The notes under the pieces are model-generated. The model made no database searches, was not told the origin of the DNA, and saw only the letters and a list, made by a program, of their open reading frames with translations. Shown here piece after piece: positions 16,013 to 37,550 of a DNA stretch of 64,000 nucleotides. The translations under genes were made by a program, and so were the position numbers. The number at the start of each line of letters is the position of its first letter. Position 1 is the first letter of the stretch. The stretch spans positions 199,889-263,888 of the forward strand of contig LBYD01000002.1 in assembly GCA_000995965.1 (NCBI GenBank), in the 5' to 3' direction. The DNA comes from Candidatus Moranbacteria bacterium GW2011_GWC2_40_12. Its GTDB lineage: Bacteria; Patescibacteriota; Minisyncoccia; Moranbacterales; UBA11712.

Positions 16013-17530
16013 CTACTTCGTTTTCAGTGCTTCGGCTTTGCTGAAGTGTGCCCCGATGTCCCTCCGGCAATCGAGGCGGTTGCCGGCGTCGTCTTCCCGG
16101 GGGATCACCCGGATTTTGCCGTTGTCGAAGGCCGCGAGCAGTCGCTGGCGCAGAATCTCGGCTGTCTGGCCCCGGGTTTGTCCGGACTTGACTGTGGTAT
16201 TGGCCAGAAGATAGGCCACGCGGGAGCCGTCGGATTTGAAGACGCCGTCTTCGTAGTCCATGGCGGACGGGATGACGGTGATCTTCTTCTTGTCGAAATA
16301 ATCGAAGTCGATCTCCATGACCTCGCCTTTGGTGAGCGACCAGGGGTAGCCTTTTTGCTGTTTAGGACCGCCTGGACCGGTAACCAGGGCAAAGCAAATC
16401 GAAATCTGATCCGTCCGTATTTCGGGCTCCACCTTGTGCAAGTTGCCCTGAACCGCAGCCTTAAGCAGAGCGCCCAAGTTCCGTATCCTCTTCACGACCG
16501 GCTGGAATTCCGGCTCGCCCGGGCGAACGTTGATCTCGCAGACCCGGATCGCTTTCGGCTTTCCGTCAGGCAGGAAAGATACGAAACATCCGGGGTATAT
16601 AACACATGGACGAAGGACATTCTTCAGCCACATAGCCTGGGTAAGAGGATAGATAATAGATTCGTCGACAAGTTTTAAAAGTTCTGGGGATTCCCAGGGA
16701 TGCGGGGAGATGGCACCCATTCCTCCGGTAATCGGGTTCCAAATTCCAGAGGGGCCGGGGAACCTTTCCGGGTAGTCCATCGCCGTGGGAAGAATTTGAT
16801 AATGCGCGTGTTCGTCGGCTAGAACTGTGAAGCTGATTTCAACTCCAGACATTCTGGCTTCGATAAGAAGCGGCCAAGGAGCCTTTTCACCGCAGACATT
16901 GGTGTAAGAATCCTTGAAGTCCTTGATCAGGAGGTCGTAGGTATCCCTGATGCCCCAGCTGTCGAGGATGACGCGGGATCCCTTGCCGCCGGCGCTGTAA
17001 GGATATTTCAGAACGGCGCCGCCATGTTCATGCAAATAGTCCAGACAGATACCGGCCACTGCCCGGAAATCACGGGCATCAACCTCGGCCGCGGGGGCGA
17101 CGGGAATATTTGCTTCGCGGCAAAAGCGTTTACATGCGATCTTATCGCCCTCAAGGGTGTTAGCGCCCACCTTTCCAAGACCTATGATGCGGTTGCCGAA
17201 ACCGGCTTCCGTCACCAGATCCACCAAGCCGTTGAAGAGCAGACCTTCGGGTCCGACCATTGCTATGTCCAATTGCCCGTTTCCGAAGGCTTCGATCAGG
17301 GCAGCAGCGTAATCTGCTGCTGAATTGCTCCTGGTTGGGATAAAGTCAATTGGCCATTGGTGGTTTGGCAGCCGTGCCCAAGGCTCCATCGCTGGGGTTC
17401 CCCGCACGACGACACCCCGATAGTTTCCGGGATGGAGTTCACTTTTAGCTCGGCTTGTTTCCAGCGCGGCCTCGAGCATTCTCCCGTCTGTTCCCGAAAA
17501 TGCAATTTTGCAAGGTTCTGATTCTGGCAT
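16013..17530 (-). CDS. phosphoribosylamine--glycine ligase (PurD/GARS)-like ATP-grasp protein, compositionally foreign
   Basis: 505 aa; GARS N-domain, ATP-grasp and C-domain order; ITGGMGAISP resembles the PurD GGMGAYSP motif; GC ~58-63% against ~40% in the neighbours. Confidence 0.7.
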   Translation of the reverse strand: MPESEPCKIAFSGTDGRMLEAALETSRAKSELHPGNYRGVVVRGTPAMEPWARLPNHQWPIDFIPTRSNSAADYAAALIEAFGNGQLDIAMVGPEGLLFNGLVDLVTEAGFGNRIIGLGKVGANTLEGDKIACKRFCREANIPVAPAAEVDARDFRAVAGICLDYLHEHGGAVLKYPYSAGGKGSRVILDSWGIRDTYDLLIKDFKDSYTNVCGEKAPWPLLIEARMSGVEISFTVLADEHAHYQILPTAMDYPERFPGPSGIWNPITGGMGAISPHPWESPELLKLVDESIIYPLTQAMWLKNVLRPCVIYPGCFVSFLPDGKPKAIRVCEINVRPGEPEFQPVVKRIRNLGALLKAAVQGNLHKVEPEIRTDQISICFALVTGPGGPKQQKGYPWSLTKGEVMEIDFDYFDKKKITVIPSAMDYEDGVFKSDGSRVAYLLANTTVKSGQTRGQTAEILRQRLLAAFDNGKIRVIPREDDAGNRLDCRRDIGAHFSKAEALKTK

Positions 17531-28362: not shown

Positions 28363-29838
28363 ATGAAAAAGAAAAACAAAAAATATCTTGAAAATAAAAT
28401 TATAATTCTTTTTTTTGCTGTGTTTATTGCGCTGACGCTTTCCGGATGCGGCGCTCCGAAGGAAACTAGCTATAAAGTTGACCTTGAAATTTGGGGGCTT
28501 TTTGACGATTCGGATGCGTTTTCAAAAGCAATCCAAGAATACAAAAAAAGAAACAGCAGGGTAGGCGCGATTACCTATAAAAAAATGCCGGTTGATTCCT
28601 ATGAAAATGACCTTCGGGACGCTTTGGCGATCGGGAAAGGGCCGGATATCTTTCTTATCCATCACACCTGGCTGGCAAAGCATCTCGACAAACTTGAGCC
28701 TGCGCCACTGGAAATGGGAACCGGCAATGGCGAAAAGGCTGTCTTCATCACGCCAAGAAAAGTCCAGGAATATTTTGCGGATGTTGTCCAGAAAGATTTC
28801 GTGAACGGCTCAAATGTTTATGCGCTGCCCCTCTCGGTCGATTCTTTGGCTCTTTATTATAATAAAGATATTCTCAATCAGGCGGGGATTTCACGTCCTC
28901 CAAAAACGTGGGAAGAATTTGACAGTGATGTCCAGAAAATCACCAAGATTGACTCATTTGGGAACATCATTCTTGCCGGAGCGGCGATGGGAGTCTCCAG
29001 CGACCGTCCCGAAAATCTCGGCGGCGGAAAAATCAACCGGGCTACCGACATCTTGACGCTTCTTATGATGCAGGCAGGAACCGAAATGTTTGATTCCGAG
29101 AGAAAAATGGCCAAGTTTTCCGAATTCTCTTCTTCTGATACCGGAAAAGACAAATTTCCCGGACAAATGGCGCTTGAATACTACACGAAATTTTCAAATC
29201 TCAATTCAAGCCAATATACTTGGAATGCGCAAATGCATAATTCGATTGATGCTTTCGTAGAAGGAAAGACAGCTATGACAATCAACTATTCTTGGCTTAT
29301 TCCGCGAATCCAAGACAAAGCTCCGAAGCTCAATTTTGGCATTGCCCCAGTTCCTCAAAATAAGGATCAAAACAATAAAGGAATCAACGCTAACTTTGCC
29401 AATTATTGGGGCTTGGCAGTTTCAAAAAGCAAGATTATGGCAACTGACGAGGGGCAACCAGCCACGGCGACAAATGAACAGAGGATCACCGAAGCCTGGA
29501 GGTTTCTTGCTTATCTCACGATGGGTTCTGAAGAAATTTCTCCTTTTATCGGAGCAGCATCCAGTGAAGTGGCTGGATACAATCCAGCGGAGGAATATGC
29601 CGAAAAACAAAGAAAGCCCGCAGCGCGGCGGGACCTTATTGAAAAGCAGAAAGAAGATTTGCTTCTCTCGCCTTTTGCCCAAGGGAACCTCATTGCCCGT
29701 TCCTGGCCGGAACCGGACAATCTGGCGGTGGAGAAAATATTTGATGAGATGATTGACGATGTGGTTCTCCGGAATGAAAAATCAGGTGAAGTCATCCGCC
29801 AAGCCCAAAATAGCGTCAATCTGCTGATAAAGAGATAA
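28363..29838 (+). CDS. ABC-transporter-type extracellular solute-binding lipoprotein (family 1, sugar-type); no permease or ATPase adjacent
   Basis: Start chosen at MKKKNKKYLENKIIILFFAVFIALTLSGCG (lipobox LSGC); SBP_bac_1-like sequence; stop overlaps the start of the next gene (taATGtcc). Confidence 0.7.
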   Translation: MKKKNKKYLENKIIILFFAVFIALTLSGCGAPKETSYKVDLEIWGLFDDSDAFSKAIQEYKKRNSRVGAITYKKMPVDSYENDLRDALAIGKGPDIFLIHHTWLAKHLDKLEPAPLEMGTGNGEKAVFITPRKVQEYFADVVQKDFVNGSNVYALPLSVDSLALYYNKDILNQAGISRPPKTWEEFDSDVQKITKIDSFGNIILAGAAMGVSSDRPENLGGGKINRATDILTLLMMQAGTEMFDSERKMAKFSEFSSSDTGKDKFPGQMALEYYTKFSNLNSSQYTWNAQMHNSIDAFVEGKTAMTINYSWLIPRIQDKAPKLNFGIAPVPQNKDQNNKGINANFANYWGLAVSKSKIMATDEGQPATATNEQRITEAWRFLAYLTMGSEEISPFIGAASSEVAGYNPAEEYAEKQRKPAARRDLIEKQKEDLLLSPFAQGNLIARSWPEPDNLAVEKIFDEMIDDVVLRNEKSGEVIRQAQNSVNLLIKR

Positions 29839-30518
29839 TGTCCCAAGTTACAAAAATTATAAAGGAAAATAAAATTTTGATGAAAACGATATATTTTACA
29901 GGAAAGAAATATATTATCGGATTATTTTTGATTGTCTTGTTTATCCTTAGTGCAAAAATATCTGAAGCGGCTTATTTAACAAACGCTCAGTGTGCTGCAC
30001 AGGGAGGAAGATGTAATTGGGTTTCAAATATTTGCTCATCTGACGAGACACTGGTGGGTCTCTGTGAAGGAGGAGCTTTTTCACAGGGAGCCTGTTGTAA
30101 ACCAAACACAACCCCATCACCTACCCCATCACCTACCCCATCACCTACCCCATCACCTACCCCATCACCTACCCCATCACCTACCCCAATATCAACAGCA
30201 GATACTAGCGGATCACTTGTCCCCTGCACCAATAATTGCACACTTTGCGACATTATCGTCGGCCTCAACAGAATTTTCAAATATCTGGGCACTCTTTTGG
30301 TCATTGTTGCGATTCTTTTCATCATAATTGCCGGAATTGCCTATATGGTTTCGGGCGGAAGCAAGAATTTGACTGAATGGGCGAAAAAAGCGCTGATGTA
30401 CGCTCTGGTCGGTTTTGTAATATATCTCGCTTCCTGGATGATTGTTGGTTCGATTCTTTCAGCTATGGGATACAACAGAACTGGCTGGTCGACATTTGAT
30501 TGCGAAAGCGGATCTTAG
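29838..30518 (+). CDS. secreted protein: signal peptide, Cys-rich domain, (PTPS)n linker, T4SS-pilin-like (TrbC/VirB2-type, PF18895-like) two-TM domain
   Basis: 226 aa; CAAQGGRCNWVSNICSSDETLVGLCEGGAFSQGACC, then PSPTPSPTPS..., then LVPCTNNCTLCDIIVGLNRIFKYLG plus two TM helices; an alternative start is MKTIYF at 29880. Confidence 0.7.
   Translation: MSQVTKIIKENKILMKTIYFTGKKYIIGLFLIVLFILSAKISEAAYLTNAQCAAQGGRCNWVSNICSSDETLVGLCEGGAFSQGACCKPNTTPSPTPSPTPSPTPSPTPSPTPSPTPISTADTSGSLVPCTNNCTLCDIIVGLNRIFKYLGTLLVIVAILFIIIAGIAYMVSGGSKNLTEWAKKALMYALVGFVIYLASWMIVGSILSAMGYNRTGWSTFDCESGS
30111..30190 (+). repeat. 12-bp tandem repeat (cccatcacctac x ~6) encoding the PSPT linker
   Basis: Direct perfect tandem copies within a CDS; a degenerate copy lies at 30976-31020 in the next gene. 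Confidence 0.8.
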
Positions 30519-30535: not shown

Positions 30536-31621
30536 ATGAAAAAGTCATATTTTCAACCCGTTATCGTTTTCACGATTGTTCTTTTGACAATAATATTTTT
30601 TTTGCAAATCGCAATTTTATCCCCGGCCGTGCTTGCCGATGACGACAGCACCGGAGGACTGGTTCCCTGCAACAACAAATGCACCCTTTGCCATATTCTG
30701 ATCGGTCTTCAAAACATATTCAAATATCTCATTGGCCTGCTTTTTGTCGCTACGATGTTTTTTGTCACCTTAAATGGCGCGCTGATGATGGTTTCAGCCG
30801 GAAGCAAGAAGATTATCGGCCAGGTAAAAACCGCTCTTGGCTACTGCCTGAAAGGTTTCCTCCTTTTTCTTATCTGCTGGGTTATTGTCACGGGTATCAT
30901 GAAAACACTGGGCTACAGGCAACTCAACAATTGGTGGCAGTTTGAATGTGACACGACTCAAGCAGAACCACCGGTATCACCTACCCCATCACCAACCCCG
31001 TCACCGACCCCAACTCCTACAAATAAATCATGCAAAGACATTGGCGGTATCTGTCGAATTTGGCATCCTTCGATGGAGGGGCAATCGAAGTGCGAGGAAG
31101 GAGAGCAGCCCCGAGAAGATTACAAGTGCCCAAATTCGGGAGAAATTTGCTGTATCACAAAGGCAATCTGGAATTGTGCCGACGCTGCGGCCGCGGCTCG
31201 AGAAGTAATTAATAATTATATGAAACTAGTAAACAGTGGCCAGCAATATGGTGCTAAGTTACCAGGCGATATAATAAAGGAAACTGCAAACTGTGGTTCA
31301 TCGTGCAATTGGTCTTGGCAGTCTGCCGGTCTGCCGGATTTCTGGAGTCTGAAACGGAGTGAATGGGACGGAAACCCAAATTCTTTGCAGCCGGGCGACA
31401 TTTGCTTACTAGTTTCGAATGATCCTAACGCACAAGGTGACGCTAAATATCCGCATGCGTTTATGATTTTGGATCAAAATGGCATGACAACTATGGCAAG
31501 CCCTAAAATCAATATCACATATAGTAAGGATGGGTTAAACTATAATATTAATCGACTAAAACCAGAAAATTTACATATTGAAGTAGTTCGTATTTCAGAC
31601 GTGGTTTGCAAGAACAAATAG
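30536..31621 (+). CDS. secreted fusion protein: T4SS-pilin-like domain, PT linker, Cys-rich domain, C-terminal putative papain-like (CHAP/NlpC-P60-like) cysteine peptidase domain
   Basis: Start chosen at MKKSYFQPVIVFTIVLL; LVPCNNKCTLCHILIGLQNIFKYL pilin core; CKDIGGICRIW...CEEGEQPREDYKCPNSGEICC; C-terminal domain with candidate catalytic Cys (ANCGSSCNWSW) and His (PHAFMIL). Confidence 0.6.
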   Translation: MKKSYFQPVIVFTIVLLTIIFFLQIAILSPAVLADDDSTGGLVPCNNKCTLCHILIGLQNIFKYLIGLLFVATMFFVTLNGALMMVSAGSKKIIGQVKTALGYCLKGFLLFLICWVIVTGIMKTLGYRQLNNWWQFECDTTQAEPPVSPTPSPTPSPTPTPTNKSCKDIGGICRIWHPSMEGQSKCEEGEQPREDYKCPNSGEICCITKAIWNCADAAAAAREVINNYMKLVNSGQQYGAKLPGDIIKETANCGSSCNWSWQSAGLPDFWSLKRSEWDGNPNSLQPGDICLLVSNDPNAQGDAKYPHAFMILDQNGMTTMASPKINITYSKDGLNYNINRLKPENLHIEVVRISDVVCKNK

Positions 31622-32379: not shown

Positions 32380-32400
32380 TCATAATTTTTTTACAAAACA

Positions 32401-33392: not shown

Positions 33393-33532
33393 CCAGATAA
33401 ATATTTCTGAAAAGGTTTCCTTTGCGGCTTCGTTTCCAATGGAGCCGCTTTTTATTTGGATTGTATATTGCATAGTCTTCCTCGAAAAGCTATAATAAGC
33501 TCGGCGAGAAAAATAATTATTTTGAGACAAAA

Positions 33533-33931
33533 ATGAAAAAGACAATATGTTGCTATCTCACAACGACTAGAAATAAAAAGAAAATATTTATCGAAATATT
33601 TTTTGCTGTTTTCTTTTTAGTTATTTTTCTTCCAGGAGCGATTTTTGCTCAAGGTGTGCCCATTCCATCCGAGAGCCTGCCCGCGGGCAGTGATTTGAAA
33701 ACGGTGGTTGAGAATTTCATGAAGTGGCTTCTTGGCATCTTTGGTTTTTTGGCAATTATCGCTTTTATCGTAAGTGGAATAATGTATCTTACTTCTGGCG
33801 GTGACAAGGAGAGAGCGGAAACAGCTAAAAAAGCCATGAATTATTCCGTCATAGGGGTAATTGCAGGTTTATCGGGATATCTGATTATCCAAGCCATTGA
33901 AAGCTGGCTCGGTGGTTCTACTACTTTTTAG
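33533..33931 (+). CDS. T4SS-pilin-like (PF18895-like) protein
   Basis: 132 aa; signal peptide; MKWLLGIFGFLAIIAFIVSGIMYLTSGGDKERAETAKKAMNYSVIGVIAGLSGY. Confidence 0.7.
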   Translation: MKKTICCYLTTTRNKKKIFIEIFFAVFFLVIFLPGAIFAQGVPIPSESLPAGSDLKTVVENFMKWLLGIFGFLAIIAFIVSGIMYLTSGGDKERAETAKKAMNYSVIGVIAGLSGYLIIQAIESWLGGSTTF

Positions 33932-35874: not shown

Positions 35875-35946
35875 CCCGCCAGAGGCGGATAAAGTCCGAG
35901 CAGAGGACTTGAGGTTAGCGTCGGAATTAACAATCGAATAATTTTT

Positions 35947-36314
35947 GCCGGGCTAGCTCAGTGGTAGAGCAGAAGACTGATTTTCGGTCCATTCCGCAGC
36001 GATGCGGAAAAGAAAAATCGGGTGAATTCGAGGAAACCTAATCTCCGACGTTATGTTGGAGCAGGGCAATCTCGAGCCAATCCTTCGCCGGGAGGCTACG
36101 GATTGCAAGCAAGCTAATTTTAGAAGGCTTGCCTGCCGTAGCTTTAGCGGAGGCAGGTGTAGAGACTAGCAGGTGAGTTCCAACAATAATCCTGCGCCAG
36201 CGCCCGACCGCTCCCTTCGCGAAGGGAGGGGATGAAATAGTCCGATCCTTGGGGAAACTCAAGCAAACGACGAGGAAAATCTTTGTGTGCCCAGTTCGAT
36301 TCTGGGGCCCGGCA
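35947..36314 (+). tRNA. tRNA-Phe (anticodon GAA) interrupted by a group I intron between positions 33 and 34
   Basis: Exon 1 is 35947-35978 (acceptor gccgggc, D-arm tagctcagtggtagagca ~ E. coli tRNA-Phe, anticodon stem gaaga, ct). Exon 2 is 36275-36314 (gaaaa-tcttt, variable gtgtg, T-arm cccag-ttcgatt-ctggg, acceptor gcccggc, a). The spliced loop is ctGAAaa. Confidence 0.75.
35979..36274 (+). ncRNA. group I self-splicing intron (~296 nt, no ORF) in the tRNA-Phe anticodon loop
   Basis: P1 with U.G at the 5' splice site (exon gacu / intron gguc); P7 halves gAGACUAg (36163-36169) and auAGUCC (36237-36243); terminal G before exon 2. Confidence 0.7.
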
Positions 36315-36998: not shown

Positions 36999-37550
36999 AT
37001 GCGTATTTTGGCGACGCTGGCTCTTTTGGGGGCAGTCTTCGCAAATCCTCAATTTTCCTCGAAGGCTTTGGCCCAGGGAGCCTCTGACCAAAATATAGAG
37101 CAAAAATCAAAAAGTGAATCAAATACAATTGAAAACAAGATAATTTCAGCAAATGATAATTTTATCGCTTCAGCTTATATTCCGGAAGTGAATCCCAAGA
37201 AGCTTGCGTATTTCGAACGATTGAGAAAAAATATCAAGCTAATTGACTATTCAAAGCTTCCCAGCGGCGATTTCACCATCAATGCTTCTGCCTATACGGC
37301 GGCGGCTGATGAGTGCGGAAAGTCAGACGGGATTACCGCCAGCGGACGGAAAGTTATGGAAGGCCGGACGCTCGCTTGTCCTCCGGGATATACTTTTGGA
37401 ACCAAGATTGAGATTGACGGAATGGGAACCTATGTCTGTGAGGACCGCGGCGGAGCGATCAAAGGAAACCACTTTGACATCTATGTTGAGACAAAAAAAC
37501 AAGCTTTCGCTTTCGGACGAAGAAATCTTTTGGCGAGAGTCGTGAAATAA
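36999..37550 (+). CDS. secreted 3D-domain (MltA/YuiC-like) cell-wall protein
   Basis: 183 aa; signal peptide; C-terminal ADECGKSDGITASG...GTYVCEDRGGAIKGNHFDIYV with three conserved Asp (3D domain). Confidence 0.75.
   Translation: MRILATLALLGAVFANPQFSSKALAQGASDQNIEQKSKSESNTIENKIISANDNFIASAYIPEVNPKKLAYFERLRKNIKLIDYSKLPSGDFTINASAYTAAADECGKSDGITASGRKVMEGRTLACPPGYTFGTKIEIDGMGTYVCEDRGGAIKGNHFDIYVETKKQAFAFGRRNLLARVVK

Follow-up and report, generated by a model that had tools for sequence, protein, structure and literature searches.

A VirB2-like pilin joined to a divergent, predicted NlpC/P60-fold domain, with an exchangeable head, in a pilin array of Candidatus Moranbacteria

The 64,000-nucleotide stretch of DNA analyzed here, referred to below as the window, comes from Candidatus Moranbacteria bacterium GW2011_GWC2_40_12 (GenBank assembly GCA_000995965.1, contig LBYD01000002.1, positions 199,889 to 263,888 of the forward strand). 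It contains an open reading frame (ORF) of 361 residues on the + strand at 30536–31621, with its ATG at 30536 and its stop codon at 31619–31621, whose product joins a pilin domain of the VirB2/TrbC type to a C-terminal domain predicted to have the papain-like fold of NlpC/P60 hydrolases. We cautiously favor the interpretation that this protein is a VirB2-type pilin with a C-terminal enzyme arm, in other words a wall hydrolase displayed on a pilin or pilus, whose cognate partner would be the 245-residue product of the next gene, p245. The identical 361-residue product is called, in a constant neighborhood, in at least four independent assemblies from NCBI, JGI and ENA (GCA_001784895.1, GCA_001000395.1, a 294-kb JGI contig and an ENA contig), and the exact protein is indexed in 58 blocks of the sequence collection. 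In the comparisons that follow, relative proteins are denoted P and a number, and related loci or contigs L and a number.

What kind of domain occupies the C-terminal part of this protein? The sequence-only reading of the gene had proposed a CHAP/NlpC-P60-like peptidase from three short motifs, all of which are present in the translation: ANCGSSCNWSW at residues 251–261, which contains Cys253, GDICLLV at 287–293, and PHAFMIL at 306–312, which contains His307. Conservation bears out the choice of these two residues, as both are invariant in all 12 members of the family and in the four canonical NlpC/P60 relatives found on the same scaffold (16 of 16 aligned sequences). The 12-member family shares further invariant positions, namely G-x-x-Y, Ser255, P-G(-D), Gly316, Thr318, Ala321 and Asn337. 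Alignment places Cys253 on the catalytic Cys of CwlO and CTn7-Orf16 and His307 on the catalytic His of canonical NlpC/P60, and the domain can be matched to canonical NlpC/P60 proteins motif by motif (GxxY, xCxS, PGD, H). The same pairing of Cys with Cys and His with His was obtained in two hhalign comparisons of the family profile, from which canonical sequences were left out: the first, against P0006, P0016, CwlO and CTn7-Orf16, gave a probability of 97.8% (E 1e-12), and the second, against L014, L018, CwlO and CTn7-Orf16 with P0006 and P0016 excluded, gave 92.8% (E 4e-7).

Structure prediction points in the same direction. An alignment-based AlphaFold2 model of residues 163–361, the input alignment of which held two canonical NlpC/P60 sequences, has a mean predicted local distance difference test (pLDDT) score of 87.4 and a predicted template modeling (pTM) score of 0.75, with block pLDDT values of 86–96 over residues 207–361 apart from the last block at 79. 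A single-sequence AlphaFold prediction was uninformative (pLDDT 45). In the alignment-based model, Cys253 opens a helix (residues 253–263) and His307 opens a β-strand (residues 307–311), as in papain-like enzymes. A Foldseek search of the PDB with this model returned NlpC/P60 hydrolases as the best matches (E 5e-4 to 6e-3, probability 1.00), the top entries being 4hpe (C. difficile CTn1-Orf17), 9ubf (Acd33800/CTn7-Orf16), 8xud (MepS), 6biq (Trichomonas NlpC2) and 4fdy (SAV0400). Lower-quality matches of this PDB search included the non-peptidoglycan papain-like proteins AvrPphB and Josephin. In the viral library, the matches were to phage peptidoglycan hydrolases and CHAP/NlpC-P60 proteins. 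An origin from a phage endolysin was considered and rejected, since phage hydrolases match at the fold level only and the genomic context consists of chromosomal housekeeping genes. Taken together, the predicted fold, the conservation of Cys and His and the profile-profile homology support the CHAP/NlpC-P60-like reading, and the Cys/His observation is more than chance, given the invariance of both residues and a fold that becomes confident once an alignment is supplied.

The family defined by this domain is small. When 1.84 billion representative proteins were scanned exhaustively with HMMER, only eight real relatives were recovered, and a second database search together with the related loci (metagenome contigs) added a few. 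The family comprises about 12 sequences, 7 of them from the scanned library and the others from these two further sources; a word-indexed protein search with residues 163–361 found no homologue, and a phmmer search of the PDB with the target protein gave nothing useful. All relatives of the C-terminal domain are likewise attached to a pilin domain of this kind, or are pieces of proteins built in this way. Among the proteins on the same scaffold, P0006, which also carries the Cys-rich module described below, has a C-terminal domain that exceeds the Pfam NLPC_P60 threshold (24.8 versus 23 bits), and the domains of L014 (26.3 bits) and L018 (25.1 bits) likewise exceed the threshold of 23 for PF00877. 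The third catalytic residue of canonical enzymes, the His of 'QIIHAS', aligns with Met320 of the target and with S, A, G, N or L in its relatives; P0006 and P0033 exceed the NLPC_P60 threshold yet also lack this third His. Judged from the alignment, the invariant Thr318 or Asn337 may possibly substitute for it; catalysis by a dyad of Cys and His, or with another residue in place of the third, would be plausible. An additional disulfide between Cys214 and Cys358 is probable from the same alignment. The target thus resembles NlpC/P60 endopeptidases (PF00877; B. subtilis CwlO, E. coli MepS/Spr) in its predicted fold, in the Cys at a helix start and the His at a strand start, in the G-x-x-Y and P-G-D motifs and in its predicted extracytoplasmic placement. 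Unlike them, it is too divergent for Pfam and NCBIfam, has no conserved third residue and is fused to a VirB2-like pilin.

The second part of the argument concerns the domain at the other end of the protein. The earlier description of this domain as pilin-like holds, and its type can now be given as the VirB2/TrbC conjugative pilin of type IV secretion systems (T4SS); a type IV pilus pilin of the PilA type was rejected for this reason. The gene lies in a chromosomal array in which five genes carry a VirB2-like pilin domain. Residues 37–140 share 44% identity (E 8e-28) with the C-terminal half of the product of the upstream gene at 29838–30518, and hhalign aligns the target domain with the PF18895/PF04956 pilins of the array at 95.6% probability (E 1e-8) over a helix-loop-helix spanning residues 55–127. 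A profile of the target domain retrieved 81 database proteins, nearly all of them annotated as PF18895, with E values down to 1e-42, and close relatives score 14.7–28.9 bits on PF18895 against a threshold of 26.6. Most of the T4SS_pilin proteins retrieved by profile search are small and unfused.

Hydropathy analysis resolves a leader (residues 3–36) and two hydrophobic helices (53–88 and 99–127), which are joined by the basic loop SAGSKKIIGQVKT at residues 87–99, containing three Lys and no acidic residue. By the −3/−1 small-residue rule, the signal peptide is probably cleaved after VLA34 and before DDD. This combination of signal peptide, two-helix hairpin and basic loop is that of VirB2/TrbC/TraA pilins (PF04956, PF18895); known VirB2 pilins are ~70–130 residues when mature and have no enzymatic domain, whereas the target carries one. 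Three Cys before the helices (Cys45, Cys49 and Cys52) and one after them (Cys138) are invariant in nine sequences and are common to the enzyme-free paralogue at 29838–30518. More generally, the predicted extracellular segments are Cys-rich, and their Cys are conserved, in keeping with an outward display. In the VirB2/TraA layout both ends of the protein lie outside the cell. For this reason, a hairpin of the VirB2 type would have its C-terminal extension pointing outward, from either the membrane or a filament.

The pilin and enzyme domains are separated by two further elements, both of which had been recognized from the sequence. The first is a linker rich in Pro and Thr, the length and sequence of which differ between relatives, and the second is a Cys-rich block containing six Cys. 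The six-Cys module begins with 'C-x3-GG-x-C' and ends with 'CC', and it is optional in the family: it lies between linker and enzyme in the target, P0001, P0006, P0007, L011, L019 and L021, is N-terminal in the upstream pilin (29991–30098), in P0002 and in a pilin of L009, and is missing from other family members. In the upstream paralogue, a variant of the module (C-x6-C-x6-C-x9-C-x9-CC) is followed by a (PTPS)n linker and then by the T4SS_pilin domain. The upstream paralogue and the target therefore consist of the same modules in different order, and P0002 contains both arrangements in one protein. The AlphaFold2 model of the module shows three short strands (pLDDT 69–79), and no Pfam match or PDB sequence match was found for it. 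The name 'knottin' that had been given to it is an interpretation rather than an observation. Its spacing (C-x6-C...C-x6-CC) also recalls that of β-defensins, a resemblance that we take as a lead only.

Comparison of orthologous loci in related contigs revealed differing heads on one pilin scaffold. A head of type A, with the motif 'NCGSS', is present in the window, in L011 and in P0002, P0003, P0004, P0005 and P0013. A head of type B, with 'HCWST', is present in P0001 (L007), L019, P0008 and P0014 (L009). Canonical NlpC/P60 heads with a full Cys-His-His triad occur in L014–L016 and L018, of which L014 and L018 were scanned and exceed the Pfam threshold, and canonical heads lacking the third His occur in P0006, P0016 and P0033. 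Finally, P0007 (L006) and L021 carry a head of the H...D/H-x-H kind (L006 833–1831, which is P0007; L021 1–768), with H-x13-D and H-x-H conserved in the two sequences. The identification of this alternative head as M15/LAS-like is weak: Pfam gives Peptidase_M15_3 at E 0.014, and a profile search of the PDB gave only Sonic hedgehog at E 0.55 and a His-tag artefact. On the contigs L010 and L026 (ENA contig_43189 and contig_31154), frameshifts or in-frame stops disrupt many genes, gyrA and the fusion among them. Errors of assembly or sequencing seem a better account of this than pseudogenisation, and P0016 is therefore read as a truncated call of a P0006-like protein.

The boundaries of this exchange are sharp and include the neighboring gene. 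Where the head is replaced, the flanking genes and the pilin part remain 70–90% identical (71–89% for the pilin part itself, which is better conserved than the enzyme domain) and p245 falls to 25–33%. In a blastn comparison of the window with L006, similarity ends at 31152, the head beginning at 31154, and returns at 32392, between the end of p245 (32379) and the start of the next gene (32401); the boundaries between L006 and L007 are the same. The replaced block of DNA thus consists of the C-terminal domain and p245. Moreover, p245 clusters by head type, with identities of 62–79% among types A and B, 56–99% within the canonical type and 25–33% between types; between the two M15-like loci, the p245 proteins share only 25% identity and the heads 46%. 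Among all related loci examined, homologues of p245 occur only at this type of locus. The protein has an N-terminal membrane helix and two invariant Cys, and it gave no match in Pfam, NCBIfam or the PDB.

How might such a protein work? In the mechanism that we propose, the fusion would be exported by way of its Sec-type signal peptide and would insert into the cytoplasmic membrane as a helical hairpin, so that the enzyme would lie outside the cell, held by a tether of ~25 residues. The fusion may then enter a pilus as other VirB2 pilins do, sparsely or terminally as a minor subunit, with the enzyme displayed on the surface. There, the thiol enzyme would cut the peptide stems or cross-links of peptidoglycan at the place where the pilus meets a wall. 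A wall-directed role is argued for by the canonical NLPC_P60 and putative M15/LAS-like heads at the same locus and by a fusion of a pilin to an SLT domain elsewhere. As for whose wall is cut, the wall of a host or neighbor of an epibiont-type bacterium would be a more likely target than the producer's own wall only, because close relatives differ by exchange of the enzyme head in the manner of an effector; we place a host or rival wall somewhat ahead of self-directed wall opening. The membrane-anchored, extracytoplasmic p245 would be the cognate partner, most plausibly an inhibitor that keeps the wall of the producer itself from being cut, or alternatively a factor that sets specificity.

Several results weigh against this interpretation and are collected here. 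Assignment of the C-terminal domain to NlpC/P60 is supported through profile-profile comparison and a predicted structure; the target itself gave no Pfam hit even at E ≤ 1, no relevant NCBIfam hit and no score above the PF00877 or PF05257 threshold. A HMMER search of PDB sequences with the family profile (built without P0006) gave no match, and BLASTP between the C-terminal domain of the target and the canonical domain of P0006 was not significant (E 1.3), for which reason the strong phmmer score to P0006 is attributed mostly to the common six-Cys module. The canonical third catalytic residue is absent, so activity could be weak, altered or lost. In addition, the pilin domain of the target does not reach the curated thresholds of PF18895 or PF04956 in a Pfam scan, and no VirB4-, VirB6- or VirD4-like protein was found in the window among 16 of the 17 non-nested ORFs of at least 400 residues and the genes flanking the array. 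An appendage of ~200 residues on every subunit could not pack in a VirB2 filament, which leaves a minor or terminal role at most. Lastly, all variants of p245 are homologous, even beside unrelated enzyme folds, which is unusual for a classical immunity protein and speaks against that role.

A more specific form of the favored interpretation is that the locus is a pilin-borne polymorphic effector system, in which interchangeable wall-degrading heads, each with its p245 partner, are displayed on a T4SS pilus and cut host or rival peptidoglycan at contact; we regard this as tentative and less likely than not. The locus resembles polymorphic toxins (CdiA-CT/CdiI, Rhs, LXG; Zhang et al. 2012, PMC3482391), in which a constant N-terminal delivery part precedes a variable C-terminal enzyme, as here, and in which recombination with sharp junctions swaps the C-terminal domain and the next gene downstream, the same pattern as at this locus. 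Unlike in those systems, the carrier is a VirB2-like pilin, the payloads so far are wall hydrolases only, and p245 is one homologous family whereas polymorphic toxins pair with unrelated immunity families.

An alternative that we consider about equally doubtful is that the fusion is a self-directed substitute for VirB1, which would only open the producer's own peptidoglycan locally for the passage of a VirB2-like pilus or T4SS. In Gram-positive conjugation, SLT or NlpC/P60-CHAP enzymes (PrgK, TraG, CwlT, Tn916 Orf14) open the wall locally, and the best structural and sequence neighbors of the target domain are hydrolases of this kind from C. difficile conjugative transposons (CTn1-Orf17 in 4hpe and CTn7-Orf16 in 9ubf). 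These Tn916 Orf14-type hydrolases (CTn1-Orf17, CTn7-Orf16, with CwlT, PrgK and TraG as analogues; 'VirB1-like') are, like the target, tied genetically to T4SS components. They exist as proteins in their own right, in many cases with SLT or CHAP as a partner domain and with an N-terminal anchor of their own, encoded inside a full T4SS cluster, whereas the target is fused to a pilin, belongs to an array of pilins only and undergoes cassette exchange. The T4SS of Patescibacteria shares homology with the monoderm conjugation class, and a recognizable VirB1 wall hydrolase is lacking in most Patescibacteria genomes that bear VirB2 (PMC12102498); an own-wall function would be a fit with both this reported lack and the kinship to conjugation-system hydrolases. 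A pilin tether would also place the cut correctly, and fusions of T4SS_pilin to an SLT lytic transglycosylase were found in Candidatus Yanofskybacteria (L013 5446–6975; L024), with both domains above the Pfam threshold. However, an assembly factor with a constant substrate is not expected to swap unrelated folds or to co-vary with a partner gene, and no T4SS machinery genes were found near the array among the scanned ORFs.

Could the pilin hairpin be a membrane anchor only? The protein would then be a tethered autolysin for the turnover or division of the cell's own wall, with no pilus involved, a scenario that we judge unlikely. It would agree with the lack of T4SS genes among the scanned ORFs of the window, with the score of the target pilin domain below the Pfam threshold, and with the poor fit of bulky C-terminal domains in a filament. 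Several HExxH proteins, moreover, carry the same anchor: pilins with long Cys-rich tails bearing HExxH metalloprotease-like motifs were found at L022 4923–6635, L023 4998–7643 and L026 11675–13552, the last of these a double pilin. Against it stand the position of the gene inside a five-gene VirB2-like array of conserved synteny, the stronger conservation of the pilin domain than of the enzyme domain and its retention of the four invariant Cys of the enzyme-free paralogue, and the exchange of the head as a cassette, which is atypical of division autolysins.

It is improbable, in our estimate, that the domain is a weakened or inactive NlpC/P60 derivative serving as a wall- or ligand-binding adhesin, or that it is a non-peptidoglycan protease, an acyltransferase or a lipid-directed enzyme. 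Some members of the NlpC/P60-LRAT superfamily do act on non-peptidoglycan substrates, and the missing third catalytic residue with a variable position, the failure of library hidden Markov models (HMMs) to detect the domain and the lower-quality Foldseek matches to AvrPphB and Josephin could be read in this way. The invariance of Cys253 and His307 across ~30–70% sequence divergence argues instead for retained chemistry; P0006 and P0033, which are above the NLPC_P60 threshold, are likewise without the third His, and the replacement domains in relatives are wall hydrolases. That the Cys/His resemblance is fortuitous and the C-terminal region not papain-like at all is very hard to credit: the missing direct library match, the low single-sequence pLDDT and the failure of the family profile alone to find a PDB sequence are outweighed by two independent profile-profile comparisons, a confident alignment-based model with NlpC/P60 or phage hydrolases at the top of two structure libraries, and the correspondence of the GxxY, xCxS, PGD and H motifs one by one.

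The features of the gene and its array are listed in the table below. Along the + strand, gyrA and the gene for a solute-binding protein are followed by the pilin whose Cys module is N-terminal, the target and p245, and then by a double pilin, two pilins, tRNA-Leu, rluA and rplS; the genes of the array region are all on the + strand with gaps of 18–140 bp, and this order is kept in related assemblies recorded as Candidatus Moranbacteria or Moraniibacteriota. The hairpin after the fourth pilin-domain gene is the first strong terminator-like one and is probably the end of the main transcription unit, as judged from its sequence. The double pilin is 71–80% identical in most related loci and reaches 251–625 residues with extra modules in L009 and L026. 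Unlike T4SS-linked VirB2, the array does not adjoin virB4 within the 64 kb, and the scanned ORFs of the window have housekeeping functions or other roles with no relation to type IV secretion.

Features of the pilin-hydrolase fusion gene and of the surrounding VirB2-like array (coordinates are positions in the window)
Feature	Coordinates	Strand	Evidence
Whole gene: VirB2-like pilin fused to an NlpC/P60-like domain	30536..31621	+	ORF, translation, public gene calls
Predicted signal peptide, residues 1–34, hydrophobic core 3–36	30536..30637	+	hydropathy, charge count
VirB2/TrbC-like T4SS_pilin domain, residues 35–140	30638..30955	+	paralogue identity, hhalign, profile search
Pro/Thr/Ser-rich linker, residues 141–165	30956..31030	+	76% P/T/S
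Six-Cys module, residues 166–206	31031..31153	+	C-x6-C-x12-C-x11-C-x6-CC pattern
Divergent, predicted NlpC/P60-fold (papain-like) domain, residues 207–361, 155 residues	31154..31618	+	model, Foldseek, hhalign
Cys253 codon TGT, putative nucleophile	31292..31294	+	invariance, model, alignment
His307 codon CAT, putative general base	31454..31456	+	invariance, model, alignment
Upstream paralogue: signal/anchor, six-Cys module (29991–30098), (PTPS)n linker, T4SS_pilin	29838..30518	+	PF18895 35.6 bits (threshold 26.6)
p245, 245 residues, N-terminal membrane helix	31642..32379	+	conserved synteny
Tandem double VirB2-like pilin, 194 residues	32401..32985	+	PF18895 74.8 bits in two stretches; PF04956 44.7 bits (threshold 27.9)
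VirB2-like pilin, 118 residues	33036..33392	+	PF18895 41.2 bits
Terminator-like hairpin after the fourth pilin-domain gene	33424..33448	+	11-pair stem followed by a T-run; consensus match
VirB2-like pilin, 132 residues, last gene of the array	33533..33931	+	PF18895 39.2 bits; PF04956 36.7 bits

Three further observations concern the window outside the array. A 183-residue protein with a C-terminal 3D domain (PF06725), a domain that occurs in wall-active proteins of the RlpA/MltA type, is encoded at 36999–37550 on the + strand and is conserved, in most related contigs, at a distance of a few kb downstream from the array. A group I intron at 35969–36264 (Rfam RF00028, 57 bits; gathering score 50) is situated within a tRNA gene at 35946–36312 (+). 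This intron-split tRNA was missed by ARAGORN on the raw sequence, and joining its flanks, GCCGGGCTAGCTCAGTGGTAGAGCAGAAG... and ...CCCAGTTCGATTCTGGGGCCCGGCACA, leads to tRNA calls, most often Phe. Finally, a 505-residue ORF at 16013–17530 on the − strand lies in the stretch of highest G+C content in the window (0.53 versus ~0.44), and its sole Pfam match is a partial ATP-grasp (GARS_A).

Tandem VirB2-like arrays of divergent paralogues, sometimes with an intervening non-pilin gene, have been described in Patescibacteria (Wang et al. 2023, PMC10633639; Quinonero-Coronel et al. 2025, PMC12102498), where they are widespread (PMC12102498), and one such array is essential in Southlakia epibionticum, so far the only species open to genetic work (PMC10633639; PMC12857230). 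No mention of a pilin-hydrolase fusion was found in the papers searched on Patescibacteria pilin arrays. What is new here is the domain architecture and an HMM-invisible, lineage-specific NlpC/P60 subfamily, together with a cassette behavior that was not found in the searched literature.

The fusion bears on what the pili of Patescibacteria do and on how a wall is crossed without a recognizable VirB1 (PMC12102498, PMC12857230, PMC10633639). The locus offers a testable hypothesis for wall breaching or host specificity by bacteria belonging to the Candidate Phyla Radiation (CPR), and it may represent a new type of carrier for polymorphic effectors. If the effector reading is true, the pilin would add to polymorphic toxins a scaffold for delivery that has not been described before. 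It would also be a candidate for the 'missing VirB1' of the Patescibacteria T4SS and would provide a concrete mechanism by which ultrasmall CPR epibionts breach the walls of their hosts.

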